64,000 nt of DNA from a virus (IMGVR_UViG_3300047382_000480:74661-138660), one strand, 5' to 3'. Shown: positions 4,689 to 58,309, counted from the first letter of the stretch. Made by a program: numbers and translations. The notes: a model not told the origin generated them from the sequence alone.

Positions 4689-4715
4689 ATCTTTTGCTCC
4701 GAACAATGATACTGG

Positions 4716-4723
4716 TATTTATA
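4716..4723 (-). promoter_or_regulatory. T4-type late promoter TATAAATA
   Basis: Exact consensus 28 nt upstream of the 4688 start. Confidence 0.8.
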
Positions 4724-4737
4724 CGAATAAAAAAGAC

Positions 4738-4765
4738 TTGACTTTCGGGCGAAAAAAAGTATAAT
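4738..4765 (+). promoter_or_regulatory. Sigma70-type promoter for glycosyltransferase operon
   Basis: TTGACT-N16-TATAAT just upstream of the ATG at 4776. Confidence 0.7.
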
Positions 4766-4775
4766 AAATAAGGTT

Positions 4776-8203: not shown

Positions 8204-8874
8204 ACATCTATACAGTAAAATGGGGTACAAAATATTCTTCTGAATATGTAAATAAGATAGCAGAAGATCTCCAATCCCTTTCCCCAGAATCGCATAAAAA
8301 GGTTTTTTGCATAACCGACGATCCATCTGGACTCAGCGATCTTGTTGAGCCAATACTCATACCAGAGGAAAATGATTTAGAAAAATGGTGGAACAAAATG
8401 TATTTGTTTTCTCCACTAGTAAGCCAAGAAGGGGAAAAACTTTTTTTTGACCTCGATATACTAATCCAAAAAGAAATAAAACCCTTCGAGGAATTTGACC
8501 CAGAAAACTGCCTCGGGATTGTAAAGACTTGGTGGCATGACCTAGAAAGGATGAAAGAAGAAACAAAACACGTTCCTCACAAATTCAGTGATATAAACTC
8601 AAGCATTTTAAGATGGAACGAAAATTTTGATTCAGAAAAACTTTGGGAATACTTTAATAAATATAAGCAACAGATACTTTGGCAATATCGTGGTATTGAT
8701 AATTTTCTTTGTGATAAGAACATAATCCCCATGAAACTTTTCCCAATAGGATGGGTATATAGTTTCAATCAAGGTTATATCTTTCCGCAAGACACTGAAA
8801 AGCACGTGTATCGAGAGATTCCGTATATTTGCTTGTTTGACTCTATGGGTAAAAGTGAAGATGTTAAAATCTAA
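8200..8874 (+). CDS. GT-A glycosyltransferase-like protein
   Basis: KWGTKYSSEYVN, CITDD, WWNKMYLF, FFDLD, NSSILRW, GIDNFL. Confidence 0.8.
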   Translation: MNIYTVKWGTKYSSEYVNKIAEDLQSLSPESHKKVFCITDDPSGLSDLVEPILIPEENDLEKWWNKMYLFSPLVSQEGEKLFFDLDILIQKEIKPFEEFDPENCLGIVKTWWHDLERMKEETKHVPHKFSDINSSILRWNENFDSEKLWEYFNKYKQQILWQYRGIDNFLCDKNIIPMKLFPIGWVYSFNQGYIFPQDTEKHVYREIPYICLFDSMGKSEDVKI

Positions 8875-9529
8875 TTTTCTTAATAATTTTAAATTCTATG
8901 GTGAAGCACTTCACTTCATAGAACAAAAAGCACCGCACAAACTCACCGACTTACGTCAATGCCACGAGGAAAATCACGTTGAAGCAGTGACGTGGCTAGT
9001 GGAACAATTAATAAAGACTGTCGAAAACTGCGCTAGACAAGAGAAAATTAAGGTATTGGTGCTAAACTCTTGGTTAGGCGTGCCTCTCGTCCCTCTCCTT
9101 TGCGAAAACCTAGATATAGGGGAGTTACACTTAGTTGATTTAGATAAAGAAGCATTAGATATATCTAAAATAATGCATAAACATTATGCTCAGGAAAAGT
9201 TTGTAAAGATTCGACATCACAATCTAGACATTCCCTTTGCGTTTGATGAATTAAATAAAATCGATGCAGATATTGTTGTAGCAATTAATACAGAACAAAT
9301 GTATCCACTGAAAGAACTTACAACAAAAAATCCAATGGCAGTATTCGCTTGTCAGAATAGCGATGTGATTGAGGAAATGTATGGTATAAATTGCGTTAAA
9401 AGTATCGACGAATTAAAAGAACAAATTGACTTAGAAGAAACATATTATGAAGGACAACGAGAACAAACATATTATTCTTGGGATGGAAAAAGAAAATATA
9501 ATAGATTCATGGTCATAGGGTCTAAATAG
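8861..9529 (+). CDS. Class I methyltransferase-fold protein (degenerate Gly loop)
   Basis: VLNSWLG, VDLD, INTEQM, CQNSD, NCV, RFMVIG; homologous pattern to 51369-51986. Confidence 0.6.
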   Translation: MLKSNFLNNFKFYGEALHFIEQKAPHKLTDLRQCHEENHVEAVTWLVEQLIKTVENCARQEKIKVLVLNSWLGVPLVPLLCENLDIGELHLVDLDKEALDISKIMHKHYAQEKFVKIRHHNLDIPFAFDELNKIDADIVVAINTEQMYPLKELTTKNPMAVFACQNSDVIEEMYGINCVKSIDELKEQIDLEETYYEGQREQTYYSWDGKRKYNRFMVIGSK

Positions 9530-10133
9530 TAATATCCTCTACCATCAGTTCCCACATATCTTTATCTGGTACAACAAACCCGACAGTAATTCTTGGACCA
9601 CCCCCAGCGCAATGCCATACTGGATCAGATTGATCGCCATAATAACCAACTTTGGCAGACCACCCTTTCCAATCTGGTAATGTGTGGATTATTTCTCCAT
9701 CCCAAAATTGAAAATACCCATCTCCTAGATTATAGTTAAACAAAATATTATATCCAGGAACATCCCAATTATTATGCCACCCCATAAATCCGTCTTCTGG
9801 ATAGTACACGTGTACAGCACTATATTTGGCACCTAAAAATTTAACCAGAGTGTCATTAAACCTTTGAGACTCTTTTTTAAATTTTTCTGGAGATTGAGCT
9901 CCAGGACCAAAGTGTACGTTCCGAACAACCTCTGGTGGACCTGCATGTTGCCCTTCTTCCTTTCCCATTGGCTTTTTGAGCATTTCTTTTAAGTAGTCAA
10001 AAGATTGAGAATGTTCAGAGTTTGAGTTGCCGTGATCACTAATGACTAATTCTGATAAATCCTGATCAAAAAACCATTCACTGTGTTCATTTAAAATTTC
10101 TATTATTTCTTTATTAAGGTCTATAAATCTCAC
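9522..10133 (-). CDS. Putative Fe(II)/2OG-oxygenase or cupin-fold protein
   Basis: YYPEDGFMGWHNN ... WHC ... RITVGF resembles the double-stranded beta-helix His...His...Arg pattern. Confidence 0.55.
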   Translation of the reverse strand: MRFIDLNKEIIEILNEHSEWFFDQDLSELVISDHGNSNSEHSQSFDYLKEMLKKPMGKEEGQHAGPPEVVRNVHFGPGAQSPEKFKKESQRFNDTLVKFLGAKYSAVHVYYPEDGFMGWHNNWDVPGYNILFNYNLGDGYFQFWDGEIIHTLPDWKGWSAKVGYYGDQSDPVWHCAGGGPRITVGFVVPDKDMWELMVEDITI

Positions 10134-44077: not shown

Positions 44078-45514
44078 TTATGAAACTACTTTTACGCCAT
44101 ACTTTTTTTCAAATAAATTAGCATCTTCGCGACTATTAACCATCGGTTCGCCTTTAATATTTAATGACGTATTTAACAACATAGGAATTCCAGTTTCCTT
44201 CTTCCATTTCTTTAGTAATCTCCAAAGACCTTCGTGTTGTTCTTTGGTCACAGTCTGTACTCTACTCGTTCCATCTTTATGTACAATTGCTGGATACTTT
44301 TCGGGATCCCTTGCTTTAACTATATATTGCATATATGGGCTCTCAAACCCCTCGTCAACATAGAAATGTTTGTGGACATCTTCTTGTAATATAACAGGAG
44401 CAAATGGTCTAAACTCTTGCCGTTTCTTAATCTTATTCACCAAATCTTTCATTTCTAATCCAGTGGGATTGGCAAACAGACTTCTATTACCCAATGCTCT
44501 TGGACCAAACTCAGCACGACCACTAGCAACACCAACAATGTTATTATCTATCAACTCTTTGAAGAGTTTATTTACAGGGTAATCACCTTTTATCTCTTCA
44601 CCGAGATATGGAGACTTCCAGTGTAACATTTCCATTTCATTACCTGCAACTGCTCCAATAGAACTACCAGCATCTCCTGGATTTGGCATAACCCAAACAT
44701 TATCAAAGAATTCATGAGCGTGTCTATTTGCTAAACAATTTAACGCACACCCGCCCATCAAAACAAGATTCGCGGATTTAGTTAGATGTTTAGCAAGTTT
44801 TAGAAGTTTAATAAATTCTTCTTCGTAAACTTTTTGTGCGGATGCAGCTAAATCAAAATGATCAGCATCGGGTAAAAGGTTTGAGCAACCTCTATGAAAA
44901 TTAAACTTTGCTTCTAACATTTCTCTCATTTGGTCAGCATATTTTGGATCACCATATGCTGACATTCCCATGAGAATGTATTCGTCTTCGTTTGGTTTTA
45001 AATTTACACGACCTGTTATTGCAGAATAAAATAATCCAAGGGATTGAGGGTAAACTTTGGTGAACAGTTTTTTACTGCTGATGTTTCCGCTTTTGTCGCA
45101 AGAATATGCTGATATGGAAGTTGTATCAAACTCCCCTATGGCATCAATTACAAGAACAGCAGCATCTTTAAAATTAGAAGTAGCAAACCCAGCAGATGCG
45201 TGAGACCTGTGATGATTCCCATATTTAACTTTTGCGTCTATCCCATACCCCTTGAGATATGTACGAGGGTTCATCCATTTATTGGGTTGCCCAGCATATA
45301 ACTTCCGGAGAGCCTTTTTGTAAGGATCTTCATACCAGTGGATAATATCTGGATTCCCAAACTTCAACGCTTCTTCTATCAATTGTGTGTTTAGGTGTGC
45401 ATCGTTTTTCTTTCTACTATATCTCTCAGTATGACTCGCAAAAAGAATTTCATTATCTTTAACTACTGCAAGAGACCCATCATGAGTCCCTGCTGCAACA
45501 CCCCACTTAATCAT
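44078..45514 (-). CDS. Carbamoyltransferase (NodU/CmcH family)
   Basis: HDGS, ERYSRKKND, HHRSHA, GGCALNC, PGDAG, EFGPRALGNRS, RPFAP, LLNTSLN. Confidence 0.96.
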   Translation of the reverse strand: MIKWGVAAGTHDGSLAVVKDNEILFASHTERYSRKKNDAHLNTQLIEEALKFGNPDIIHWYEDPYKKALRKLYAGQPNKWMNPRTYLKGYGIDAKVKYGNHHRSHASAGFATSNFKDAAVLVIDAIGEFDTTSISAYSCDKSGNISSKKLFTKVYPQSLGLFYSAITGRVNLKPNEDEYILMGMSAYGDPKYADQMREMLEAKFNFHRGCSNLLPDADHFDLAASAQKVYEEEFIKLLKLAKHLTKSANLVLMGGCALNCLANRHAHEFFDNVWVMPNPGDAGSSIGAVAGNEMEMLHWKSPYLGEEIKGDYPVNKLFKELIDNNIVGVASGRAEFGPRALGNRSLFANPTGLEMKDLVNKIKKRQEFRPFAPVILQEDVHKHFYVDEGFESPYMQYIVKARDPEKYPAIVHKDGTSRVQTVTKEQHEGLWRLLKKWKKETGIPMLLNTSLNIKGEPMVNSREDANLFEKKYGVKVVS

Positions 45515-45611
45515 AGATAAACGGATCCTTGTCCCGAAGTTCCTTCAGGCGTTTTTTAAATGCACGTTTCGCTTTCCACTTATAATATATGTTTTTAACC
45601 CATCCAACCAT
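45507..45611 (-). CDS. 34-aa peptide ending DPFIYD, coupled to the carbamoyltransferase
   Basis: MVGWVKNIYYKWKAKRAFKKRLKELRDKDPFIYD*; fills the gap and overlaps both neighbours. Confidence 0.7.
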   Translation of the reverse strand: MVGWVKNIYYKWKAKRAFKKRLKELRDKDPFIYD

Positions 45612-46326
45612 TTTTCTCAAAATCCTCTTTTATTGTGTTCGACCACAGCTTATAAACATCCCCATTGGGGTGCAATCTATCCCTCGCCTTGTCTCCTTCG
45701 TTAGGCGACCACGCAAGATTTCTTTCCGTGCCAGCTATTTGTATAGGAGTATAATCAAGGTATCTCGTTATATTTAGCTGGTTCATGGTGTTAATAATCT
45801 GGTCATTGTGAAACATAAAATTATCATTTCTGATCCAAAAATTTGTATATGCCTGATTCTGATCCCATGACCCTTCGTGAACAATCCCTGTGTTTCCAGT
45901 TTGAGGGTGGCAAAATTTCACATATCTATCTGGAGTGCTCCATTGAACCACGACCGCATATGGGGTTACGTGTTTCAGGAGATTTGCTGCGTTGTATAAC
46001 ATAAACATATTTGATGACCCAGCAACACCAAGATTAATTACTGGTCTTCCGATTGCCTTTTGTAGCTGAGAGGATACTGTACATTCCTTTGGTACTCCTA
46101 CGCCCATTGTGCAAGAATCCCCAATAATAACAACAGCGTTTTTCCAGTCTATTGTATCCCATTCATCAGTTCTATACCCATCGGAATTAAGGTCATATGT
46201 TATATGGACATCACGCCATTTCTCTTTCCATTTTCTACTTGATTTTTCCCAAGTCTCTGGATTATCAGTCGCCATCCATTCAGGGCTATTATTATCATAA
46301 GTTAGATTATTTCCCCTGAGTAACAT
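45595..46326 (-). CDS. SGNH/GDSL hydrolase-like protein
   Basis: GDSCTMGVG, INLGVAGSSN, DRLHP. Confidence 0.8.
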   Translation of the reverse strand: MLLRGNNLTYDNNSPEWMATDNPETWEKSSRKWKEKWRDVHITYDLNSDGYRTDEWDTIDWKNAVVIIGDSCTMGVGVPKECTVSSQLQKAIGRPVINLGVAGSSNMFMLYNAANLLKHVTPYAVVVQWSTPDRYVKFCHPQTGNTGIVHEGSWDQNQAYTNFWIRNDNFMFHNDQIINTMNQLNITRYLDYTPIQIAGTERNLAWSPNEGDKARDRLHPNGDVYKLWSNTIKEDFEKNGWMG

Positions 46327-47146
46327 ATCCCCTCCGCATAATCTCGTCCTCCAATAAACTAGAAATATGAATATGCCCTTGATTAGAAGGATGACCGCAA
46401 GGTGTGATCAATCCCTCTGCAAATCCAGGAATTTTATATCTGTTAAAATATTCATTAGAATAAATTGGTTGTAATTCATCTTCGGATAAAGATGGTTCTT
46501 GTTCTCTAACCAGATATTCCATTAGTGTTCTATTTCCCTTTGGTTTAACCATCAAGTCCCAATCAACAATATCCGCAAGATACTTTTTTGACTCTGGGAT
46601 AATCATAGATCTAAACTCTTCTCTTCCAATCCTCAAGTCGAACGCAGAAACAAGAAGCAGTTTAGCATTATTTACTTTACACCAATTTTGTACCTCGGCA
46701 ATGTTTAATATGCAATCTACTGCCTCTTGTTGCCAACTATTCCCAAACTCAGCATATCCTTGCCAAAGTTTATTGCCACTAAGATCTGGAAATACTGGTT
46801 GGAAATGATGATCGACCAATTCTCCTTTAGGTTGTAAAAAATCAAATCTAGATAAACCAGACAAACAAAAAACAACAATTTTTTCTGACGTTGAATCTAG
46901 CTGGTTCATATAAAGTTCTTTCGCAGCAGACCGATTCCCTCTTCCTTTAGAACCAAAATTCAAAGGTATGTAACCAATTCTATCCGCAAGGTTTGTAACC
47001 CAACTATGATCGCTTTCTACTCGGTCAATCATCGCTATTGGTGCTCTTTTATATACTCCGTCTCCGTATCTCGCGTGAAACTTTCTGGGCACTGACCCCT
47101 GTCCACTAGTGAAACTACAACCAATTCCAATCAAATACTTACTCAT
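46307..47146 (-). CDS. SGNH/GDSL hydrolase-like protein
   Basis: GCSFTSGQG, NFGSKGRGN, GHPSNQGH. Confidence 0.75.
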   Translation of the reverse strand: MSKYLIGIGCSFTSGQGSVPRKFHARYGDGVYKRAPIAMIDRVESDHSWVTNLADRIGYIPLNFGSKGRGNRSAAKELYMNQLDSTSEKIVVFCLSGLSRFDFLQPKGELVDHHFQPVFPDLSGNKLWQGYAEFGNSWQQEAVDCILNIAEVQNWCKVNNAKLLLVSAFDLRIGREEFRSMIIPESKKYLADIVDWDLMVKPKGNRTLMEYLVREQEPSLSEDELQPIYSNEYFNRYKIPGFAEGLITPCGHPSNQGHIHISSLLEDEIMRRGYVTQGK

Positions 47147-48296
47147 AAAAATAATCCTTGCAATATTGTCGAAGTTCTATGTGTGCTACATCAGGTTTTG
47201 AAGAATTTTCTGTGAGTTGGTTGTAGTTATGTTCTAAAACAGGTCTCATAGATTCAAACCAAGAAACTTTATCCTCTATAGAATCAATGTACTTCAGAGT
47301 TTCTATAATAGCATCCATCCTTTTTGTGTCATCAAGTTTATCATAAGACTCGTCAAAATAATCAGAAAATGTTTTATAACCTCTACTCTTCATTATTTCT
47401 AACTCACCCTTTCCACCAAGAACTATAAATGGGTGGTAGCAAGCGATTGGTTTGAATACCTTTTCGCTTGTGAATGTAGTAAGTTCTTTATCGTAATATT
47501 GTGGTTCGCTGACCACACTTACAAATGTCTTAAGAGAATAGTCAGTGTGTATTCTATTCATATAGTGCATCCAATCTTGGTCGTGTTTTTCTCCCAAAAT
47601 ATAATGATCTCTAGCAGGGAAGCTACACAATCCCCTTTCTAATACACCAGAAACACTCATCTTATCGAAAAACTCATGTCGGTGATATCTCGCTCTTTTT
47701 TGTGGGCAATTAAATGCCCAAACTTGATTATTTTTCTTATACTCTATGTGCTCATCTACTGATTCAATATTGGTTTGCATCATGGAAAGGGTTTTAACAT
47801 GCTCCTCGAATAAAGCATATGGTAAGCATTTTATTCTGTTAAAAATAGATCTAGAGTTTGCCCATTCTTCATAATGTCTATCAACTAACATATTACCTGT
47901 CACATAAACAATTGCTTGTGGTGGAATGAGCAACCTTTCACACTCACTATGAAACCAAGAAAATAACCAAGATTCTTGATAACCTTCTAGAGAAAAATCA
48001 ATCAACAGAATGGCTGTTCCATCTCTAAGTTTTTCAAGATAAGAATCATTGATAAAATCAAACAAAGAAGTTCCTCCAAACTCCTCACCCTTTGCCCATT
48101 GTTCGATTGCCCCATTCACGCCCACTGGAATGATAACATTTTTGCTATCGTGCGTTTGCAACTCAGCTTGACCAACTGTTCTGCAAATAACATTAACCAT
48201 CGGGCTGACTTGAAACCTTTTTCTAGAATCTTCGAATTTATCTTCGCAACTCAGTAGGTTTTCTCGGGTTAGGAAATTTTCAAAAATAAAATTCAT
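47139..48296 (-). CDS. Glycosyltransferase-like protein (GT10-like C-terminal motif)
   Basis: VVSE...FTSEKVFKPI..YHPFIVLG, GYKTF...FDESYD, LEHNY. Confidence 0.55.
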   Translation of the reverse strand: MNFIFENFLTRENLLSCEDKFEDSRKRFQVSPMVNVICRTVGQAELQTHDSKNVIIPVGVNGAIEQWAKGEEFGGTSLFDFINDSYLEKLRDGTAILLIDFSLEGYQESWLFSWFHSECERLLIPPQAIVYVTGNMLVDRHYEEWANSRSIFNRIKCLPYALFEEHVKTLSMMQTNIESVDEHIEYKKNNQVWAFNCPQKRARYHRHEFFDKMSVSGVLERGLCSFPARDHYILGEKHDQDWMHYMNRIHTDYSLKTFVSVVSEPQYYDKELTTFTSEKVFKPIACYHPFIVLGGKGELEIMKSRGYKTFSDYFDESYDKLDDTKRMDAIIETLKYIDSIEDKVSWFESMRPVLEHNYNQLTENSSKPDVAHIELRQYCKDYFYE

Positions 48297-48297
48297 A

Positions 48298-49314
48298 TTA
48301 CATCAACCTGTCTTTCCATGTACTTGGAGTCTTATCATTTATTATCTCTAATTTATAAGTGTAATCAAAATCTCTTGGTCCAACACTAGAAATGTAATCT
48401 ACTGTCTTTTTGACTGCTTCTCGTAGAGTAGTAGATGTCTCATAACTCAACATCTTTCTTGCTTTATTGCTACTACAAAGAGCATTCTTAACTTCTTGAG
48501 GTCTGTCGTCTTTGTATATCGGATTACCATTAAAATTACATTTTTCTGCAACAAGTTGTGACAATTCATTAATAGTCACTTCACCCTCGTCTGGACCAAT
48601 ATTAATTACCTCGTTAACAATATCTTTATCGAGTACCATTTTTGTTAAACAAGAAACGCAATCAGAAACATAAGAGAAACACCTTTTCTGTTCACCATCT
48701 CCGTATATGATCGAAGGTTTATTTTGTAAGTTTCTATTCGCCATAATACTAACGACGTTGCGATACGGATCATCGAATCTTTGCCGTTCACCAATTATAT
48801 TGTGTGGTACTGCAATATTCCATTGCATCCCATGTACACCAGAAAGGCACTTTAATGTATCCTCTGCAGCAACCTTTGCGATACCATATGGGTCGACTGG
48901 CATAGGTTTCATATCTTCAGTAAATTGCCCTGAGTTTCCATTTTGATTACCATATCTTGCCATACTACTACAAAAAACAAACCTCTTTACATTATTTGCG
49001 ATACTTGCACTTATTACAGAGACACTCGCTTCATAAATGTTACGAGTAATAAATGATGGGCTGAAAACAGAGAACCCTTCGTGAGCGGTCGCTGCACAAT
49101 GAACAACAACATCTATTTCTTCGCTTTTGATTATGTCATGCATCGCTTTTTGATTGCAACAATCAGCTTCAAAAAACTTTATCTTGTCGTTTAGATTACA
49201 ACGGAATCCACCAATAAGATTATCAACACCAGCCACAGTATGCCCGAGATCAATAAACTTGTCAGCTAGATGACTCCCCAGAAATCCTGCGACACCTGTT
49301 ATAAAAATTTTCAT
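48298..49314 (-). CDS. NAD-dependent epimerase/dehydratase
   Basis: TGVAGFLG, CSSMARYG, YGIAK, HNIIG, YGDGEQKRCF. Confidence 0.93.
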   Translation of the reverse strand: MKIFITGVAGFLGSHLADKFIDLGHTVAGVDNLIGGFRCNLNDKIKFFEADCCNQKAMHDIIKSEEIDVVVHCAATAHEGFSVFSPSFITRNIYEASVSVISASIANNVKRFVFCSSMARYGNQNGNSGQFTEDMKPMPVDPYGIAKVAAEDTLKCLSGVHGMQWNIAVPHNIIGERQRFDDPYRNVVSIMANRNLQNKPSIIYGDGEQKRCFSYVSDCVSCLTKMVLDKDIVNEVINIGPDEGEVTINELSQLVAEKCNFNGNPIYKDDRPQEVKNALCSSNKARKMLSYETSTTLREAVKKTVDYISSVGPRDFDYTYKLEIINDKTPSTWKDRLM

Positions 49315-50674
49315 ACTCAGGGAATGTCTCCAAAAAATTTGTATTTCTTCTGCGGTCGTGTTCGTTGAACCAATTGTAGAAATCTTTACGACCTTCGTTT
49401 AGTTTCTCTTCACCATAATCGCTAGTAGCCATGTAATCGTGCACTCTTCTGAACTTCTCAAACTCAATAGTCTGGAACATAGTTGGATCTGAATCGTCTA
49501 CGTTTTCTTCAATGAAGTCAAGGCATTCTTTCATATAAGGCATAAATTCATCTTTCGGTAAGATATTCATATCGTAATGTAAAGGTTCTTTCAGATATGG
49601 TGTATCAAACCTTATTGTTCTTTTTGATACGCTGTCTGGAACAATTACACCCTCATATTGTTTACGCCACTCAAGAATCTTAACCAACAATGTTTTAAAT
49701 GTAGAAACAGTGAGTGCATTAAATGTGATCATAAGATTAATCGGTGTCTTTGCTTTACTTGCATAAGAATGAAAGTTTCTTTCCCACAAGTCCAACTTCA
49801 ACCCTGTTCTTATATACTCCGCTCTCTCATTCCAGCAATCAATGCTTGTATATAACGCAAAACTTTTGACACCATTTTCCTTTCTTATTAGATTTACATT
49901 CTCAGCAAGGTTGTCAACAAACTTTTCTTTCACACCAAGATTAGTGTTTATATTAAGTTCTAGATGAGGTTGTGGGTTTCTATGGAGTTCCTCAAATAAC
50001 CTCCAAGTAGACTTATGCATCAACGGCTCTCCACCAGTCAAGCGCAAAATACTAAGAGTCTTTACAACTTCTGGATACCATTTCCACCAAGCATCTACAT
50101 ACGGATTATCGTGTTCCTCATATGCCTTGAACCAATCAATAGAAGCTGTATGGTTCTTCACCATATCGTATGGTCCAAATTTCTTGATCTCTGACATAAA
50201 TCTAGAAGAAGAATTGGGGTGGCAATACCCGCACTTGAAATTACACTCATTACTAAAAGAAAGTTCTATGTAATCAGGATTAACATTGAAGTCCCAATCA
50301 GATGCAATAATATCCCTCAACCTATCTTCTTTGTAAAGAGATCCAGACCTTATAACTCTGTCAGAAATATAGTCCTCACCCATATCCTCAACATTCCAAC
50401 AGTAAGTGCAACCAACGCATTTCTCACCATCAAGCATTTGTTTTCTTTCAACTTTCTTATGCGGTGTGTTATGAAGCTGACTCGGGTTTTCAGCAAGACC
50501 TTCTAACGGAATCTTGTGGGGAGCAGGGTGATAACAAGAATGTGTCATACCAGTTTGCAAGTATATGGTTGTATGATACCACTTAGCAAAACAAAATGTT
50601 GGGCTTATAATATCATCCATTGAATCTCGGATGACTAGTGCTTTATCTAAATCACTCACACTAATCTCTCCCAT
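49262..50674 (-). CDS. Radical SAM protein with N-terminal twitch/SPASM-like domain
   Basis: CNFKCGYC (CxxxCxxC), TGGEP; N-terminal C..KW...SCYHP...CVGCTYCW. True start is probably the GTG at 50659. Confidence 0.9.
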   Translation of the reverse strand: MGEISVSDLDKALVIRDSMDDIISPTFCFAKWYHTTIYLQTGMTHSCYHPAPHKIPLEGLAENPSQLHNTPHKKVERKQMLDGEKCVGCTYCWNVEDMGEDYISDRVIRSGSLYKEDRLRDIIASDWDFNVNPDYIELSFSNECNFKCGYCHPNSSSRFMSEIKKFGPYDMVKNHTASIDWFKAYEEHDNPYVDAWWKWYPEVVKTLSILRLTGGEPLMHKSTWRLFEELHRNPQPHLELNINTNLGVKEKFVDNLAENVNLIRKENGVKSFALYTSIDCWNERAEYIRTGLKLDLWERNFHSYASKAKTPINLMITFNALTVSTFKTLLVKILEWRKQYEGVIVPDSVSKRTIRFDTPYLKEPLHYDMNILPKDEFMPYMKECLDFIEENVDDSDPTMFQTIEFEKFRRVHDYMATSDYGEEKLNEGRKDFYNWFNEHDRRRNTNFLETFPEYENFYNRCRRISGESSS

Positions 50675-51372
50675 TCAAAATTTATAATATTTTCTCTAAC
50701 CCAAGTATCTGGGTTTTTATTTCTATTTTCAACAATATCGTATAATCTTGCCTTTCTTTCTTCTGAATATGTTGGGTGGATTAATGTCTCATCATCTGGG
50801 TAAGTTGTGATTCCATTATCAGAATATATCACCTTCCTCGCATTTCTAGTTGGCATAACCACGACAGGTATTGTCGTCGGGGATAAGTAAGAATTCAACC
50901 TCTCAACAAATATTCTATCGCCAACGTGCCAGTTTACAAATTCCTCGTCATACCCTCCAGACTTCCACCAAGATTCTGTTCTGACGCAGTAATCATTATG
51001 TGTTACCTGAGTTCTTCCAAGTAATGTATTGAAATACTCATTTGGTTCTGCCGACCTAACATATCTGTCTATAACAGGAGCAAACTGCCCTATCAAATCT
51101 CTGTCAATATCAGTCATATACGCCCACTCAGTCTCAACGTGCTTCATTGCAAGATTTCTCGCTCCGTGAGAGTTGAAGCCAATATCGTCTTTAACCCGAA
51201 AAAGTTTTATATTCTTTTCTGGGTAGTTTTTGACAATAGGTTCTGCTGGTTGTCTTGGAGATCCATCGTCAACAATAATGAGTTCTGAAAAATATTCTTC
51301 GTTGAATTGTTTCTCGATATAGTCTTTTAGTCTATACGGATCTTCAAAGTATGTTGTGACAAGTGTGATCAT
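50656..51372 (-). CDS. Glycosyltransferase family 2
   Basis: IIVDDGS, ARNLAM, TDID, GGYDEEF, GD. Confidence 0.88.
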   Translation of the reverse strand: MITLVTTYFEDPYRLKDYIEKQFNEEYFSELIIVDDGSPRQPAEPIVKNYPEKNIKLFRVKDDIGFNSHGARNLAMKHVETEWAYMTDIDRDLIGQFAPVIDRYVRSAEPNEYFNTLLGRTQVTHNDYCVRTESWWKSGGYDEEFVNWHVGDRIFVERLNSYLSPTTIPVVVMPTRNARKVIYSDNGITTYPDDETLIHPTYSEERKARLYDIVENRNKNPDTWVRENIINFEWERLV

Positions 51373-51986
51373 TTAAATCCAGTAACCATAAATCTTGTGA
51401 ATTGTTTACCGCGAAGACCAGTACAATTGAATTCAAACTCATTTGTCGAGTTTTCGCAACGATTCATTTGTTTGAAATCTAGCATATCTTTCGCACATCT
51501 TATATGCTCTGGTTCTTCGTAGAAGTCATTTCCTTGAAGTAAGTAGAATGTTCCCTCTGGTATCTTTTCCCACCACTCGTCATATGCTTCCTGAGTAACG
51601 TGTTCGGTTATTGTGTTTATAACAGTATTGGGTCTACTTGAAGGGGGATAATTCCAATCAGCCATATCTGCTGTTACTGCTTGAATATCAGAGTTGGGAT
51701 AAACATCATTTATGACCCAATCACAAACAGGATCTATATCAATTGAAACTATAGATGTAGCATTCAAGTTTGAAGAATCTTCAATCAATTTAGCAAGAAG
51801 ACCATACCAACCCCCAAAGATATAAACATCATTCAAATAATATCTTTCCTTTTGAAGTAAATCAATGATATGTTGCTTACTTGTTATCTGACTTTCCCAA
51901 AAGCAGTCCATAAACCGCTCGGATAAATCGGGGTGGAAGCGGATGAATTTTATCCAGTTGGCGAGTGTTTCTGGTTTAATTTCCAT
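51369..51986 (-). CDS. Class I SAM-dependent methyltransferase-fold protein
   Basis: IFGGWYG, SIDID, INTITEH, LQGN, EH.RC, RFMVTG. Confidence 0.7.
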   Translation of the reverse strand: MEIKPETLANWIKFIRFHPDLSERFMDCFWESQITSKQHIIDLLQKERYYLNDVYIFGGWYGLLAKLIEDSSNLNATSIVSIDIDPVCDWVINDVYPNSDIQAVTADMADWNYPPSSRPNTVINTITEHVTQEAYDEWWEKIPEGTFYLLQGNDFYEEPEHIRCAKDMLDFKQMNRCENSTNEFEFNCTGLRGKQFTRFMVTGFK

Positions 51987-52044: not shown

Positions 52045-52052
52045 TATAAATA
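52045..52052 (+). promoter_or_regulatory. T4-type late promoter for the curli/cyclase operon
   Basis: Exact TATAAATA 62 nt upstream of 52115. Confidence 0.75.
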
Positions 52053-52061
52053 ACAAAGATT

Positions 52062-52090
52062 ATTATACTACTTTGAATTTAATTAGTCAA
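52062..52090 (-). promoter_or_regulatory. Sigma70 promoter for the second modification island
   Basis: TTGACT-N17-TATAAT. Confidence 0.85.
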
Positions 52091-52114
52091 GTATTAATTT
52101 ATAAACATTGAGAT

Positions 52115-52402
52115 ATGAAAATGCAAGAAGTTTTTAATATTATAGGTGAGCTTGGGTTTCCAATCGCTGCAGCACTTATTGGTGGTTTCTTTATGTTCCT
52201 CACACTGAAGTATATTATGTCTGGAGTTATCGACCAAGTAAATGGTATGCACGGAATTGTTAAGGCACTTGACAACAGAGTAAAAACGATGAATCACGAT
52301 TTGATTCGCCTTGACACAACTATGTGTGTTGTATTGGGTATTAGACCAGACTTGAACCGCATTTCAAGGGCAGACGGCAAAACTGACGCAAGGCGAGACT
52401 AA
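52115..52402 (+). CDS. Small single-TM, coiled-coil protein (holin-like candidate)
   Basis: GFPIAAALIGGFFMFL TM segment; L.NRV..M..D.IRL; paralog of the next gene. Confidence 0.7.
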   Translation: MKMQEVFNIIGELGFPIAAALIGGFFMFLTLKYIMSGVIDQVNGMHGIVKALDNRVKTMNHDLIRLDTTMCVVLGIRPDLNRISRADGKTDARRD

Positions 52403-52656
52403 TGGATATTGTGACCGCAGTAAAAGATTTCGGGTTTCCAATAGTTGCTGCCGTTGGCATGCTTTATATGATCTATTATGTTTGGAAAACGATAACAGAA
52501 AAAATAGAAGCAAACTTAGAAGATGCAAGAATAACATTAATAGGGTTGATTGATCGTGTTAGAATGTTAGACAATGACATAATACGTTTGCAACAAAAGC
52601 TGGATACAGCAATAGAAGTGAAGGGTTTAGAAGAAGATGAAGATAACAAGAAGTAG
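52402..52656 (+). CDS. Small single-TM, coiled-coil protein (paralog of preceding gene)
   Basis: GFPIVAAVGMLYMIYYVW; LIDRVRMLDNDIIRL. Confidence 0.7.
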   Translation: MDIVTAVKDFGFPIVAAVGMLYMIYYVWKTITEKIEANLEDARITLIGLIDRVRMLDNDIIRLQQKLDTAIEVKGLEEDEDNKK

Positions 52657-53083
52657 TCTATTCGTACTTTTATGTTCTGTTCAAATTGCACATGCAGCAC
52701 CAATAGAACATAGTTTTAAGTCTCCTTCATTCAGTGGTGTGAATCAGAGTTCCCACTACTTAACAATAGAAAACCAAGAGACTTCTAGAAAAGAAGCGAT
52801 AAAACAAGAAGTTGAAGACTTACAAAAGCAATTAGAAAGAGATGCTGAGAATACAACTCTCGCAAAGTTTATTCGTAATGTAGAAAGTAGAATATACTCT
52901 ACATTATCGAGACAGATTGTTGATAGTATGTTTGGAGAGAATCCATCTGATATGGGTTCATTCGACATAGAAGGAACAGGAATAACCTACGTCAAAGATG
53001 GCGATAAAGTGGAGCTCACAATAACTGATGAATACGGCAAGGTTACTGTCATCACTATTCCTATTGGGGATTTTGGGATTTAG
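52637..53083 (+). CDS. csgF: Curli assembly protein CsgF-like
   Basis: Signal peptide, then HSFKSPSFSG, F.RN.ESRIY..LSRQI...MFG, T.ITIP; adjacent to csgG. Confidence 0.85.
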   Translation: MKITRSSLFVLLCSVQIAHAAPIEHSFKSPSFSGVNQSSHYLTIENQETSRKEAIKQEVEDLQKQLERDAENTTLAKFIRNVESRIYSTLSRQIVDSMFGENPSDMGSFDIEGTGITYVKDGDKVELTITDEYGKVTVITIPIGDFGI

Positions 53084-53849
53084 CACTGGTTGTACCACTG
53101 TTGGTGGCAACTTGAAAATTCCATTAGAGGATAAAGCAACTGTTCAATTTTCATTACTTGAACAGGAATTAATTGATGTCCCAGAACCAATAAGAAAACC
53201 ATCTGTAGCAGTATACAGATTTAATGATCAGACAGGGCAAAAAAGACAAAATGCTAGTGGTGGTACATCATTTAGCACTGCGGTTACTCAGGCTCCAGAT
53301 GTATATCTGATAAGAGCATTGAAAAGAGCATCACACGGAAACTTTTTTAGAGTTATAGATCGCCAAATACTTGATGACTTAACAAAAGAACGTCAATTAA
53401 TCAGACAGACTAGGCAAAGTTATGATGGCGAAGGAGCAAAAAAATTACCAGCACTAACATTTGCTGGTATGATAATTACAGGTGGTATTGTCGGATATGA
53501 CACCGCCATCGATTCTGGTGGTTCTGGTGCGAGATATCTAGGCATTGGAACAAGCAGTCAGTTTAGTCGCGACACAGTAACTATTAATATCCGTTTAGTG
53601 AGTGTTGCGACTGGTGAAGTATTACTTGAAGTTATAGCGAGTAAGACGATACTATCCACAGCAAATGGCGGGGATGTATTTAAATTTATCGAGCAAGGAA
53701 CTGAACTCGTCGAGATCGAGTCTGGTGTTGCTCGTAATGAGAGCGTATCAATTGCCACGCAAAGAGCAATAGAAACTGGCGTATTAGAACTCATAGAGAA
53801 AGGAAATACACATGGGTTTTGGACGTATAACCATAACGGGAGCAAGTAA
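53028..53849 (+). CDS. csgG: Curli secretion channel CsgG (lipoprotein)
   Basis: Lipobox STGC; VAVYRF.DQTGQ, FSTAVTQ, L.KERQLIR, GGIVGYD, GG.GARYLGIG, RLVSV.TGEVL. Confidence 0.95.
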   Translation: MNTARLLSSLFLLGILGFSTGCTTVGGNLKIPLEDKATVQFSLLEQELIDVPEPIRKPSVAVYRFNDQTGQKRQNASGGTSFSTAVTQAPDVYLIRALKRASHGNFFRVIDRQILDDLTKERQLIRQTRQSYDGEGAKKLPALTFAGMIITGGIVGYDTAIDSGGSGARYLGIGTSSQFSRDTVTINIRLVSVATGEVLLEVIASKTILSTANGGDVFKFIEQGTELVEIESGVARNESVSIATQRAIETGVLELIEKGNTHGFWTYNHNGSK

Positions 53850-53887
53850 AATTTATGGGGTAAAATCTCATAAGGGAGTAAGTAAAA

Positions 53888-54622
53888 ATGAACACGTTAC
53901 AAAAAAGGTTTATTGTGATGTTGTTCCTAGTATGTTCAGGGACATCGCCATTGCTGGCAGATAACGCTATCTACATTGATCAAATAGGTTCAGGGGTAGA
54001 CATTGATATCACGCAAGACGGCAGTGGCAATAAAGTCGGAGGGAGTGCCGACGATGATACAAAAATGATTGTAAATGGTGATAACATTAGCATGAGCATA
54101 GATACTGTTGGTTCTACCAACTCTATAATCGGCAATATTGTCGGTGAGGGTAGCACTATCGATATCGATGTTTCTGGTAGCACAAACACTGTTGATTTTA
54201 ATGTAGACCCAACGAATACGTTTGGGGCAACTGATGGAGATTACACGTTGAATATATCTGGTGGTAACAACGACCTAGACCTAAATGTAGGAACTGCAGA
54301 TGCAGCAAATAACGGAAGTCTAAATTGGACAGTTGATGGCGACTTTAATAGTGCAACAATAGATGTTGATGTAAGTAACTTCAGCAATACCCTTGATTGG
54401 ATAGGTGACAGCAATACCATAGCATATGATGCAGATGGTTACGATGGTCACACATTCAATGTTTCAGGCTCGGGAAATTTCTGGGATATGAGCATTAGCC
54501 AGCAATCGACACTGCAAGTAGATGAATTGGAGATAGAACTTGATGGCGACGGAACTAGTACCACGCCTGCTACGATTTGCATTAGCCAGTCTGATTCTGG
54601 TACTGCCACAGGTTGCCAATAG
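53888..54622 (+). CDS. Secreted curlin-like beta-repeat protein (CsgA/CsgB-like)
   Basis: Signal peptide; NAIYIDQIG..VDIDITQDGSGN and repeated xIxVxGxxN units; acidic and Gly/Asn/Asp-rich. Confidence 0.75.
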   Translation: MNTLQKRFIVMLFLVCSGTSPLLADNAIYIDQIGSGVDIDITQDGSGNKVGGSADDDTKMIVNGDNISMSIDTVGSTNSIIGNIVGEGSTIDIDVSGSTNTVDFNVDPTNTFGATDGDYTLNISGGNNDLDLNVGTADAANNGSLNWTVDGDFNSATIDVDVSNFSNTLDWIGDSNTIAYDADGYDGHTFNVSGSGNFWDMSISQQSTLQVDELEIELDGDGTSTTPATICISQSDSGTATGCQ

Positions 54623-55658
54623 TAATGATGTCGGGCTAGTCGATAAAGCAGTCGGCTGGCGTCAAATCGTCAGGGAAGAAAAAGAATTAGAACCAGAAAA
54701 GGGTTCTAGTGTAATATCTAAAGACGACCTCAGGACAGGGGAAGGACGTATGCAAGTGAAGTTTGTTGATGACAGCAAACTTCGCATGACCGAACACACA
54801 AGAATTGTTATTGATAATGTAGTATTCGATAATGACCCAAGTAAGTCTGACTTAGCTATGACTTTCGCTCAGGGAACCGCACGTTTTATAACAGGTTCTC
54901 TGGGCACTATCGAAAAAGAAAATATAAGACTAAGAACTCCGACCGCATCAATAGGTATTAGGGGAACTGACTTCACAGTTACAGTAGATGAATTTGGTAG
55001 AACATTAGTCATTCTTCTTCCTGACATAAATGGTATATCGTCAGGAGAAATAATAGTTGCAACAATGACAGGTGAGGTGGTTTTAAATAAGCCATTTGAA
55101 TCCACAACGACTTCTGTCGGTGAATTACCACCATCAAACCCCGCTATCCTTAACCTAACATTGGATATGCTTGATAACATCCTCATAATAACCCCTCCAA
55201 CGGAAAGACAAACTCTAGAAGAATTTTATTCTTCAACATCTGCAAATAGAAATATAAACCCACTAGACATAGACTTCTTAGACGAGGCACTTCTTGAGAA
55301 CGAAGAACTAGAAAAAGATTACCTTGAATTCACGGAACTAGATATAAACTTCTTAGATGTTGAACTTCTAGAAAACCTATTAGAATCTTATTCAGACCTT
55401 GACTCAGAGTTGCTCAAAGAAGAACAGCAATCAGGAGATGTTGATATAGAAGGAACTGAAGAAGGATTTGACACAGTAACTCAAGTTTCTACTATCGTGG
55501 ATGGTCAGAGTGTCACGCTGACAAGAAATGTATCTGATATAGTTGTAATCAAAGTAGATCAAAGCGCAGAGACAGAAGTAATCATAGAGCAGGATGGTAA
55601 ACTTCTAGACCCCATAACAATCAATGGTAGTACGACAACAATAAATATAACACAATGA
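54540..55658 (+). CDS. FecR-domain periplasmic protein
   Basis: Signal peptide; D.LRTG.G...F.DDS.L, GTARF.TG, TPTASIGIRGTDF; acidic LDIDFLD/LDINFLD repeats. Confidence 0.88.
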   Translation: MMATELVPRLLRFALASLILVLPQVANSNDVGLVDKAVGWRQIVREEKELEPEKGSSVISKDDLRTGEGRMQVKFVDDSKLRMTEHTRIVIDNVVFDNDPSKSDLAMTFAQGTARFITGSLGTIEKENIRLRTPTASIGIRGTDFTVTVDEFGRTLVILLPDINGISSGEIIVATMTGEVVLNKPFESTTTSVGELPPSNPAILNLTLDMLDNILIITPPTERQTLEEFYSSTSANRNINPLDIDFLDEALLENEELEKDYLEFTELDINFLDVELLENLLESYSDLDSELLKEEQQSGDVDIEGTEEGFDTVTQVSTIVDGQSVTLTRNVSDIVVIKVDQSAETEVIIEQDGKLLDPITINGSTTTINITQ

Positions 55659-57481
55659 AGATGTGGCACGTATTATTAACTTTGGCGACACTTGTTTCGC
55701 TGAGACTCGTAGATCCTTTTTTGCTTGAAAGCTCTAGGCTGAGCTATTTTGATTTCTTGCAACGAGGGCAGGATGTCGTCACATCAGAACAAATCGTTCT
55801 GGTTGATATTGACGAACAAACTCTAGACAAGTTTGGGCAATACCCAATACCAAGAAGCGTAATGGCAAACGAGGTCGACAAACTTGGAAACTCTATAATT
55901 GCCTTCAATATATTATTCAGCGAACCAGATAGATCTGGGGGTGACGAGGAGTTCGCAGATGTATTGTTCTATAAAAATTCTCTTGTGGCGATCGCCCCCT
56001 CTCAAAAAACAAATATAGATTACAGACCAAGAGGTATCGGTTATGCGACATTTGGTGATCGCTCTGCAGAAGAAATAAGACCAGAACTATCTGGGATGCT
56101 ATTTGCAAGACCAGAAATTATGCAGTCGACTATAGGATATGGAACCATATCGTCAACCCCAGACACCGACGGAATAACAAGAAGGATACCACTACTCGAA
56201 AACTTTGAGGGTAGATTGTATCCTGCACTCGCCCTTGACACTCTAAGAGTTGCAGCAGGGGATATATCATATCAAATAAAGACTGATGATCTCGGGATAA
56301 GGTTTGTGCGCATACCAAAATTTGATTCCATTAAAACAGACGAAGTTGGAAACGTGAATGTTGCCTTTTGGAATGAGTTTACTCGGTTTTCGTTTACCCA
56401 AATACAGGATATACCTGAAGGGAGTATAGCAATCGTTGGTGCAACCTTCGAGGGATCTAATTTAATCTCTACTCCAGTCGGTTCAATGTATCCTCACGAT
56501 GTACAAGCCAATCTTTTAAAGACTATGATCAGTGGGGTGACTATATCACGCCTTCCAGAGTTTAAAATTTACGAAATTGCGCTAACAATCATTGGTTCAT
56601 TGCTTGTTATATTCATGCTCACTAAAATTACAATCTTAATTAGTGGTCTTGGCTTTGGATTATTAGCATTTTTGTCAGTTTTTGGCGCAAATTATGCCTT
56701 TGAGAAGTATTTTTTACTGTTTGACCCTATTTTTTGCGTTATAACACTTGTTTTAGTGTTTGCACACGGAAGTTTTATTCAATTTTACACAAATTTCAAG
56801 CAAAAACAGATGATAAAGGGGCAATTTGGAACTTATTTGTCTCCAGACATGGTTGATATGCTTGCAAACGACCCATCTTTACTGAAACTTGGTGGTGAAC
56901 GGAAAGAAATGACATTCCTGTTCATGGATATCTGCGGTTTCACTCCTATATCTGAGTATTATAAGAATAATGACGACCCAGAAGGGTTGGTATTATTGAT
57001 AAACGAATATTTAAATGAGATGACCAAAATAATTATGAATAATGGGGGAACCATAGATAAATATATGGGCGATTGTATCATGGCATTTTGGAATGCGCCT
57101 TTATCTTGCGACAATCACGCAGAAATGGCTGTAAAATCAGCAATAGAAATCGAGGAAAAGACAAATGCACTCAAGAAAATATACTCTGATAGAGGGTTGC
57201 CTGATATTAATGTCGGCACTGGTATTAATTCCGGCACTGCTATTGTCGGCAACATGGGTTCTGATGCCAGATTCGATTACTCCGTCATCGGAGATTCCGT
57301 CAACCTTGCAGCAAGATTAGAAGCAACTGCTGCTCGAGGTGAGTACAAGGAATACAAAACTATCATCTCGTCTTTCACTAAAGATTTGCTCCCCGAACAA
57401 TATAACTGCGAGAAGATCGGAGACATAAAGGTAAAGGGAAAGGAAGACCTCATCACCATATACTCACCGAAATATAAATAA
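55655..57481 (+). CDS. CHASE2-domain class III adenylate/guanylate cyclase
   Basis: VDIDEQTL..FGQYP.PR, FSEPDR, DGITRRIPL (CHASE2); three TM segments; FMDICGFT, DKYMGD, DYSVIGDSVNLAARLE, VKGK. Confidence 0.95.
   Translation: MKMWHVLLTLATLVSLRLVDPFLLESSRLSYFDFLQRGQDVVTSEQIVLVDIDEQTLDKFGQYPIPRSVMANEVDKLGNSIIAFNILFSEPDRSGGDEEFADVLFYKNSLVAIAPSQKTNIDYRPRGIGYATFGDRSAEEIRPELSGMLFARPEIMQSTIGYGTISSTPDTDGITRRIPLLENFEGRLYPALALDTLRVAAGDISYQIKTDDLGIRFVRIPKFDSIKTDEVGNVNVAFWNEFTRFSFTQIQDIPEGSIAIVGATFEGSNLISTPVGSMYPHDVQANLLKTMISGVTISRLPEFKIYEIALTIIGSLLVIFMLTKITILISGLGFGLLAFLSVFGANYAFEKYFLLFDPIFCVITLVLVFAHGSFIQFYTNFKQKQMIKGQFGTYLSPDMVDMLANDPSLLKLGGERKEMTFLFMDICGFTPISEYYKNNDDPEGLVLLINEYLNEMTKIIMNNGGTIDKYMGDCIMAFWNAPLSCDNHAEMAVKSAIEIEEKTNALKKIYSDRGLPDINVGTGINSGTAIVGNMGSDARFDYSVIGDSVNLAARLEATAARGEYKEYKTIISSFTKDLLPEQYNCEKIGDIKVKGKEDLITIYSPKYK
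57473..57480 (+). promoter_or_regulatory. T4-type late promoter TATAAATA
   Basis: Exact consensus 4 nt before the ATG at 57485. Confidence 0.65.
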
Positions 57482-57484
57482 GAT

Positions 57485-58309
57485 ATGTCTGCACAAAAAG
57501 GTTTTGAATACGAAAAGAATCTGTATACCGCACTAAAGAGTTGCGGTATTGCTGGTGGCAACCCACCTGCAGGCGCAGAAAGTGATAGACCAGACCTAGA
57601 AATAAAATTAGTTAAAAGCCGAGATACCCAAACAGAAGGTGCTGAGTTGAAACTAGCACCAACCGCTGGCGGTAGTTTAGTGATGAAGTATAATAAGGGC
57701 AAATGGATGTTTGACCCAAAGGCTGCAAGGGATAAAGAAAAGGCATTTATGATGCAGGTTGCAACAAAAGCAAACCTCCTCAGAGAAATGAATACAAGCG
57801 GAACTTATGGGACAAACTGGAGGGGAAAGACACCATTCCTTCAGAATGACGATCTAGGAAGAAAGGTACTGGCTGAAGGGGTTACAAATAAACGCCAAGC
57901 ATATGAAAAAGATATAAAACAGTTTGGTGGTCAAAACGAAGTAAAGATACCAGTCCCAGCAAAGGTGATGTGTGACTACTATAATTTAAAAGATACGCAC
58001 TATCTTAATGTAGCATCACACGGATTCTTTCTGATGAATACCAAAGATCCACTAAAATTAAATCAAGGTATCTCAGGAAGACCAATCCCCGACTTTGCAA
58101 ACTCAGCAACTCTGAAGATAAGAGTTCGATGTCAATATAAGGGGAGCGGAGATTATCAGTTCGTAATGACTCTGGAGTTTGGCGGTGTTACTGCGTCGCC
58201 ATATAATATTGGTCCAATCCTCAGCAAAACTAATGTTCAGATTGATAAACGAGCATTATTTAATGACCAAAACAAACCCCTTCTTGATCAATTCGGTTAC
58301 AATAAGTAG
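57485..58309 (+). CDS. Putative PD-(D/E)XK nuclease-fold protein
   Basis: GFEYE ... RPDLEI ... AELK pattern. Confidence 0.5.
   Translation: MSAQKGFEYEKNLYTALKSCGIAGGNPPAGAESDRPDLEIKLVKSRDTQTEGAELKLAPTAGGSLVMKYNKGKWMFDPKAARDKEKAFMMQVATKANLLREMNTSGTYGTNWRGKTPFLQNDDLGRKVLAEGVTNKRQAYEKDIKQFGGQNEVKIPVPAKVMCDYYNLKDTHYLNVASHGFFLMNTKDPLKLNQGISGRPIPDFANSATLKIRVRCQYKGSGDYQFVMTLEFGGVTASPYNIGPILSKTNVQIDKRALFNDQNKPLLDQFGYNK

Follow-up and report, generated by a model that had tools for sequence, protein, structure and literature searches.

A 64,000-nt stretch of DNA from an uncultivated virus (IMGVR_UViG_3300047382_000480, positions 74661-138660; hereafter the window) carries a block of seven co-oriented genes in which a curli-type (type VIII) secretion unit stands directly before a FecR-domain protein and a nucleotide cyclase with a predicted CHASE2 sensor. 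It is one more example of a type VIII secretion module that has been published for marine phages, and it represents no new kind of system. A curli cluster was described in pelagimyophages in 2020, with 'sibling capture' as its proposed use (PMC7029224), and CsgG and CsgF of the Methylophilales phage Melnitz were modelled in 2022, when a lysis-timing pore was proposed from synteny and models (PMC9004378); the main texts of these two papers make no mention of FecR, cyclase or CHASE2. A further report of 2022 gives the pelagiphage gene order as one or two histidine kinases (HK), CsgF, CsgG, CsgA/B, FecR, often a second CsgA/B, and adenylate cyclase (AC), places the module in podo- and myoviral pelagiphages, and describes FecR, HK and AC as absent from bacterial type VIII secretion system (T8SS) operons (PMC9599517). 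The initial annotation of this DNA had the parts list and the phage context right, while the coupling that it treated as new had already been published in PMC9599517. The additions made here are minor and comprise the predicted CHASE2 sensor of the cyclase, FecR and CHASE2 as a probable imported pair, small proteins that do not appear to be kinases, and a putative late-promoter motif that heads the block and is conserved among related loci. The word CHASE2 has 0 occurrences in the main text of PMC9599517, and a limited literature search found no paper joining phage, CHASE2, adenylate cyclase and curli.

The seven open reading frames (ORFs) fill 52115-57481 of the window, neighbouring ORFs meeting in overlaps of 1, 20, 56, 83 and 4 nt and in one gap of 38 nt. 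All of them lie on the plus strand where the initial annotation had placed them, behind the motif TATAAATA:

52045-52052, plus strand: T4-type late-promoter-like motif TATAAATA, 70 nt 5' of the first gene; putative, from the motif only
52115-52402, plus strand: small single-pass membrane protein 1, 95 amino acids (aa), with an N-terminal transmembrane (TM) helix, an amphipathic helix and a conserved C-terminal tail
52402-52656, plus strand: small single-pass membrane protein 2, 84 aa, a paralogue of protein 1 with an acidic tail
52637-53083, plus strand: CsgF homologue with signal peptide (…VQIAHA/AP…) and Pfam CsgF domain
53028-53849, plus strand: CsgG homologue, predicted outer-membrane lipoprotein, signal …LGILGFSTGC
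53888-54622, plus strand: secreted curlin-repeat protein, 244 aa, predicted beta-solenoid with a Gly/Asn/Gln ladder and signal peptide
54540-55658, plus strand: secreted FecR-domain protein, 372 aa, with signal peptide, FecR-type beta domain, linker and C-terminal beta domain
55655-57481, plus strand: CHASE2-sensor class III (IIIb-like) cyclase, 608 aa, Pfam CHASE2 and Guanylate_cyc

Five Pfam domains in the block (CsgF, CsgG, FecR, CHASE2 and Guanylate_cyc) pass their curated cut-offs. Signal peptides begin CsgF, the 244-aa protein and the FecR-domain protein, and a lipoprotein signal begins CsgG. Every block gene except the 244-aa curlin-repeat gene matches a PHROG family, and public phage collections therefore already hold these genes.

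At slightly better than even, we favour the reading that the block encodes a curli-type pore with fibre export and a FecR/CHASE2 cyclase relay that yields cAMP late in infection. Late in infection, CsgG and CsgF would build an outer-membrane pore in the host, and the curlin-repeat protein would leave the infected cell through it to make curli-like fibres on the surface. The FecR-domain protein, once secreted, would partner CHASE2 in the periplasm, as such proteins apparently do in bacteria, and may contact an outer-membrane component in the manner of FecR-type domains in cell-surface signalling; the cyclase would respond by making cAMP. Candidate purposes are aggregation or 'sibling capture', the blocking of other phages, and the reprogramming or timing of infection; aggregation, superinfection protection and import are also discussed as roles in PMC9599517. 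The roles put forward in the initial annotation had thus been published too, aggregation and superinfection in that paper and lysis timing in PMC9004378.

Pore, candidate cargo and small membrane proteins

The two pore proteins are readily recognized. CsgF matches PF10614 over profile positions 4-132 of 132 (66.1 bits, cut-off 25.8; E 4.5e-18) and phrog_35372 at 2.5e-41, and a comparison with PDB sequences returned nothing meaningful for it, the best row being unrelated at E 0.19. CsgG matches PF03783 at 157 bits (cut-off 20.8; E 5e-46), is aligned over nearly its full length by E. coli CsgG (3x2r, E 9e-41), and scores 155.9 bits with the NCBIfam model for CsgG as against 29.5 bits with that for HfaB. 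Its lipobox Cys22 is retained across the family. A 2-residue insertion and substitutions relative to E. coli fall in the constriction loop of phage CsgG. The initial annotation saw no evident CsgE, and a search with PF10627 likewise found none in the 138.7-kb virus record, which is estimated to be 86% complete; alphaproteobacterial T8SS modules are also reported without CsgE (PMC9599517). The features by which type VIII (curli) secretion is recognized are thereby represented in the phage by a CsgG lipoprotein, CsgF and a curlin-repeat subunit (the last mostly at family level), with CsgE missing from the record.

The 244-aa product is probably a curlin-repeat protein, a view supported mostly at family level and by its predicted fold. 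It has no Pfam match at E<=0.01. That it is curlin-like, as first annotated, is supported by a conserved ladder, in which invariant G-x-x-N and Q positions repeat every ~22-28 residues of the alignment, by matches to Curlin_rpt in 8 of 32 relatives (and also in the Melnitz and HTVC008M relatives), and by its top fold match. The AlphaFold model (pLDDT 82.4) is a regular beta-solenoid with two strands per turn, and the best VIA match among 48,161 chains is Pontibacter korlensis CsgA (8c50_A; Z 18.3, 211 aligned, rmsd 8.7), followed by unrelated beta-helices at Z 15.5. In the genome scan, the Curlin_rpt hits to the protein sum to 22.9 bits.

Both small proteins at the head of the block have a single N-terminal TM helix (residues 13-31 in protein 1) followed by an amphipathic helix, and both belong to phrog_18771 (4e-30 for protein 1, 4e-25 for protein 2). 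Pfam and NCBIfam gave no match for either, Pfam returning one chance-level row up to E<=10, and in the ESM Atlas protein 1 falls in virus-only unnamed clusters, the nearest named family being YvrJ at 0.90, a lead only. The label 'histidine kinase' given to genes at this position in PMC9599517 is unsupported for these proteins, which at 84-95 aa have neither a kinase domain nor a conserved His; one Gly is the only invariant residue among the 24 family members aligned. A 'holin' family, phrog_4898, matched both proteins weakly over the TM segment (1e-4 and 6e-4), and we tentatively regard them as bitopic membrane proteins of a somewhat holin-like build. The tail of protein 1, D.DRI(A/S)RADG..D.R(R/K)D, is retained even in distant relatives, and that of protein 2 is variable, acidic or basic; the difference suggests different partners for the two proteins.

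The holin-like traits bear on an alternative that extends the proposal of PMC9004378, namely that the block is a lysis-timing device in which a gated CsgG/CsgF pore acts with holin/antiholin-like small proteins while CHASE2 senses the state of the envelope. The small proteins do head the block in nearly all related loci, their TM and amphipathic helices are built as in holins, and a late-promoter motif is present; the synteny and model argument of PMC9004378 and the absence of clumping in culture would also fit. The holin matches are nevertheless weak and confined to the TM segment, with no Pfam or NCBIfam holin family behind them, no endolysin was found in the block by Pfam or PHROG, and every locus retains a signal-bearing curlin-repeat protein with an invariant ladder that a pure pore would not need. 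A pore of ~1 nm, moreover, does not breach the outer membrane, which counts further against lysis timing. We judge this alternative unlikely, if the least so of those considered here.

FecR-domain protein and CHASE2 cyclase

The FecR-domain protein is predicted to consist of a FecR-type beta domain (~30-200), a disordered acidic linker (~212-299) and a small C-terminal beta domain (model pLDDT 70, linker <50). The first of these matches FecR (PF04773) at 43.9 bits (cut-off 24; E 3e-11), and its best fold matches are the cell-surface signalling domain of PupR (6ovm_R; Z 15.0, rmsd 2.8, 137 aligned) and a Bacteroidales anti-sigma factor (4m0h_A; Z 12.8), the next reaching only Z 6.5; Foldseek gave 4.6e-05 to 9.5e-05 for the same two entries. 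It thus shares the periplasmic signalling domain of true FecR proteins, and because it has neither the cytoplasmic anti-sigma part nor the TM anchor, we classify it from its predicted domains as a secreted FecR-domain protein and not as a FecR regulator. Neither a sigma factor nor a TonB-dependent transducer was found in the block, the part of the genome to which the search for sigma factors was confined. For the C-terminal domain only weak FHA-like rows were returned (Z 3.3-3.8). A Foldseek row to the 'cell surface anchoring domain' 5ix9 (E 0.013) was aligned by VIA on the N-terminal part (Z 6.5). A complex prediction for CHASE2 (22-303) with the mature FecR-domain protein (30-372) scored 0.00 against a mark of 0.32; controls were not run, and the score is evidence neither way.

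In all 36 aligned homologues of the FecR-domain protein the final beta strand bears an invariant I-x-I-x-Q with Q at or near the last residue. The same strand motif is repeated in the curlin-repeat protein (IDITQ, MSISQ, CISQ), and the I-x-I-x-Q end might serve to dock or cap curlin subunits.

FecR-type domains belong with signalling at the outer membrane during iron uptake, and a second alternative would make the block an uptake or sensing device in which an ungated CsgG admits solutes such as iron chelates or cofactors, FecR/CHASE2 reports on them and cAMP tunes host metabolism. Uptake has been raised in both PMC7029224 and PMC9599517, and the PupR-like fold and the record's want of a CsgE would suit it. 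It is hard to reconcile with a FecR-domain protein that has no anti-sigma and no TM part, with a block that has no TonB-dependent transducer, and with the conservation of both CsgF and the curlin protein, which uptake would make unnecessary; we consider it improbable.

The cyclase is predicted to have a TM helix, a periplasmic CHASE2 domain (~25-305), a hydrophobic block (~308-375) and a cytoplasmic catalytic domain, and hydropathy marks segments 6-24, 311-329 and 352-370. CHASE2 (PF05226) covers residues 11-316 at 118.6 bits (cut-off 26.3; E 4.6e-34) and Guanylate_cyc (PF00211) scores 73.1 bits (cut-off 21.9; E 2.8e-20). The best solved relative is Pseudomonas aeruginosa CyaB (3r5g; E 1.9e-32, 116 bits), with Cya2 and CyaC also matched. 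The metal-binding Asp residues, the substrate Lys and the catalytic Asn/Arg that were first read from the sequence are all present as D425 (FMDICGFT), K469 and D473 (DKYMGD), and N550 and R554 (VNLAAR), and these, like S543, are the same in each of 32 phage homologues. The adenine-selecting pair had been given as Lys/Asp; alignment to CyaB 3r5g places Ser543 at the second position, which is Asp in class IIIa and Thr in class IIIb enzymes (Thr in CyaB), so that the pair is corrected to Lys/Ser. The Melnitz cyclase has Asp at the position of Ser543. Lys with Thr or Ser is the pattern of class IIIb adenylate cyclases, and the prediction of an adenylate cyclase stands despite the correction.

Another cyclic nucleotide as the product, or a Pycsar-like role in defence or counter-defence, seems very unlikely to us. 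The suggestion arises from PADLOC, whose generic PycC models match the catalytic domain (best 1.9e-24, 84.5 bits) slightly above the Pfam score of 73.1 bits and are its only defence-system matches. PycC enzymes are, however, class III homologues, for which such matches are expected; the best solved relatives are the adenylate cyclases CyaB and CyaC, and Cya2, Lys469/Ser543 fits the IIIb adenylate pattern, and neither Pfam nor PADLOC found a Pycsar effector beside the cyclase.

Linkage in viral relatives and a two-part bacterial origin

The initial annotation had proposed to check whether cyclase and csg genes stay together in related phages, and they do so in every locus that could be judged. 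A scan of IMG/VR gave 596 viral stretches with cyclase relatives, and locus counts were taken from the best 80. The csg-FecR block lies upstream of the cyclase on the same strand in 47 of these, and in five more (L066, L070, L079, L080 and L082) it is inverted downstream, on the opposite strand and convergent, still adjacent to the cyclase; the remaining 28 end <4 kb upstream of the cyclase and are not judgeable. Cyclase and block are thus adjoined in 52 of 52 judgeable viral loci, with no locus of sufficient length lacking the block, and the retention of linkage through inversion argues for a functional unit. The five inverted loci, which form a clade, apparently have one small membrane-protein gene only.

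Among cultured phages, the same order is annotated in Pelagibacter phage HTVC008M (KC465899) and Methylophilales phage Melnitz (MZ577097) as CsgF, CsgG, curlin-associated protein, FecR-domain or hypothetical protein, and adenylate/guanylate cyclase. Block proteins are 33-49% identical to those of HTVC008M, and at the DNA level a search of phage records with the block found only 441 nt of the HTVC008M cyclase (68.6% identity). The window encodes T4-type baseplate, hub, tail-fibre and gp32 genes and forms the last 64 kb of the 138,660-base virus record. Its single-stranded DNA-binding protein (SSB) has its nearest cultured relatives in Melnitz and the Prochlorococcus P-SSM phages, and because the identity to these is only 57%, we place the source as an uncultivated marine Kyanoviridae-like (T4-like) myophage without a close cultured relative, an assignment drawn from gene comparisons.

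Surveys of bacterial loci point to two separate sources for the block. The 80 closest bacterial cyclases, mostly from Alphaproteobacteria, are 30-36% identical over their full length; csgG and csgF are missing from the 10 kb around all 80, and a FecR-like ORF is present at 22 of them. In Pfam runs on five of these loci, three (L107, L088 and L120) showed the order TPR protein, FecR-domain protein, CHASE2 cyclase, with a GAF-HD protein after the cyclase in L088; L143 has a giant FecR-containing protein, the cyclase and then a TPR protein, and L151 has FecR followed by the cyclase. Conversely, among 401 alphaproteobacterial genomes sampled, seven have a CsgG at 39-45% identity, with csgF adjacent in 7/7 and curlin-like ORFs in 6/7, and in none of the seven was FecR, a cyclase or a small membrane protein found within ~10 kb. 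Because bacterial cyclase loci come without csgG/csgF and csgG loci come without FecR or cyclase, the phage block is, as far as these gene neighbourhoods indicate, a join of two separate bacterial units to which two virus-only genes have been added. An alphaproteobacterial origin was inferred in PMC9599517, which also reports metatranscriptome matches.

FecR and CHASE2 are most plausibly a signalling pair that was imported from bacteria as a unit. Comparable associations have been described for Campylobacterota, in which a CHASE2 cyclase clusters with a phosphodiesterase, a FecR-domain protein and a TPR protein (PMC9239204), for S. meliloti, where SMc02177 occurs alongside the CyaD1 pathway (PMC5498481) and CHASE2 cyclases reportedly have the outer-membrane-associated partner NsrA (PMC7529298), and for a Burkholderia LysM-FecR protein with a CHASE2 kinase (PMC5192318). 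In L143, from an alphaproteobacterial metagenome-assembled genome (MAG), the FecR domain lies within a 1733-aa protein (4667-9868) that also has a BapA prefix-like domain and RTX repeats, which suggests that the partner of a CHASE2 cyclase can carry its FecR domain in a giant secreted protein of adhesin-like build. The two best nominally bacterial cyclase matches, L084 and L085 (47% and 39% identity), sit on very short contigs, 2.2 and 3.3 kb long, that were assigned to MAGs of Rhizobiaceae and Saprospiraceae, L085 having a curlin-like ORF directly upstream as in phages; both are probably phage fragments mis-binned into MAGs.

The bacterial relatives of the block genes might suggest a chimeric assembly or a recent insertion of bacterial DNA that is not expressed, an explanation that is effectively excluded. 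Block guanine-cytosine (GC) content (0.37-0.40) falls in the range across the window (0.35-0.42), the 52 judgeable viral loci and two cultured phage genera carry the block, the closest bacterial proteins are only 30-45% identical, and no bacterial locus surveyed joins both halves. An independent run of unknown kind (X4) also yielded a 4.4-kb contig spanning csgF to cyclase at ~90-95% identity. Libraries from two studies that are registered as metatranscriptomes (X2 and X3) hold contigs matching parts of the block (52077-52433, 52888-53038, 53556-54354, 54318-54541 and 57082-57232) at 99-100% identity. X1 and X2 hold identical contigs and are possibly one data set; the contigs of X1-X3 attest presence, not transcription, and the uncovered parts (such as most of the FecR gene and the cyclase) are uninformative.

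The motif TATAAATA is found at 14 sites in the window where 5.4 would be expected, a number that 0 of 100 shuffles attained, and its copies sit mostly just 5' of gene starts. Among 50 related loci, 27 have it in the 150 nt that precede the first of the small membrane-protein genes, compared with 1.2% of random 150-nt windows. A second copy in the neighbourhood of the block, at 57473-57480, stands 5 nt before a 274-aa ORF directly 3' of the cyclase (motif and ORF together 57473-58309, plus strand). This ORF has no counterpart in any of 82 related viral or phage loci; it shows a PD...E-x-K-like stretch when read by eye, and its ESM Atlas clusters are virus-only and unnamed, the nearest named family being the R-HinP1I restriction enzymes (0.93, 14% of members; a lead only). 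A nuclease gene peculiar to this phage is one possibility. The minus strand immediately upstream of the block (44078-51986) holds a run of genes for a carbamoyltransferase, a nucleotide-sugar epimerase, a radical SAM protein and a family-2 glycosyltransferase, similar to the hypervariable surface-modification island of pelagimyophages described in PMC7029224.

Weighing the proposed function against known systems

Several observations weigh against fibre export with cAMP signalling. In E. coli, curli are made of a nucleator and a major subunit. The window has a single curlin gene, no second one having been found in the 86%-complete record. An extra gene separates FecR from the cyclase in 27 of the 47 same-strand loci (19 have none, as in the window); it encodes a PA14 and curlin-repeat protein in HTVC008M and a curlin-repeat protein in Melnitz. 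The curlin product of the window reaches only 14.8 bits with Curlin_rpt (hmmscan E 0.028), below the cut-off of 20.7; Foldseek found nothing for the curlin model in the PDB at E<=0.001, listing weak beta-helix rows with the CsgA fibril 8enq at rank 34. The altered constriction loop of CsgG suggests that the cargo passing the pore may differ from that of E. coli. On the signalling side, no cNMP_binding domain was found in the same incomplete record, and no cAMP receptor encoded by the phage is therefore known. Carry-over of DNA may explain the contigs from RNA libraries, and no clumping was seen in Melnitz culture (PMC9004378). The reading also reaches from what is observed, namely genes, signals, catalytic residues, linkage and mixed origin, to secretion, fibres, cAMP and protein contacts that we infer, and the same holds for the complete trans-envelope circuit of the initial annotation.

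A further possibility, to which we give little weight, is that a bacterial envelope pathway has been rewired. CsgG/CsgF and the curlin protein would have replaced the TPR or outer-membrane partner of the bacterial pathway, the FecR-domain protein would report the state of the pore or of export, or the assault of a second phage on the envelope, to the cyclase, and cAMP together with the small proteins would time lysis or reprogram the host. If this were true, the C-terminal I-x-I-x-Q that the FecR-domain protein shares with the curlin repeats would be part of the picture.

Modules of this kind are widespread in ocean viruses, T8SS modules having been reported at all 65 of the stations surveyed in PMC9599517 and relatives of the cyclase occurring in the 596 viral stretches of our one scan. 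SAR11 and OM43 are streamlined hosts without curli genes (PMC9004378; PMC9599517), and the module would add a new structure to the surface of such hosts while they are infected, and possibly a new second-messenger input. If fibres make infected cells adhere, phage spread, particle formation and marine gene exchange would all be affected.

Compared with E. coli curli, the phage block shares the CsgG lipoprotein pore, CsgF and a subunit of beta-solenoid repeats that bears a Sec signal. It differs in the lack of CsgE from the record (86% complete), in its single curlin gene and in the altered constriction loop; no CsgC or CsgD was seen in the block, which has a phage promoter motif in place of CsgD control. 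Alphaproteobacterial curli loci, which have no csgE or csgD, are closer in that csgF likewise directly precedes csgG and curlin-like genes are near, whereas FecR, cyclase and small membrane proteins were found in 0/7 of them within ~10 kb. With bacterial CHASE2 cyclase clusters the block shares a secreted FecR-domain gene next to a CHASE2 class III cyclase, those clusters having a TPR protein and sometimes a phosphodiesterase where the phage has CsgG, CsgF and curlin. The closest likeness is to the pelagiphage T8SS module of HTVC023P-type podophages and pelagimyophages (PMC9599517), which is also marine and without CsgE and has the same gene order. The clade of the window differs from it in having no second curlin or PA14 gene, a copy that PMC9599517 itself calls only 'frequently' present, and with its single curlin gene it is a further clade of this known module.

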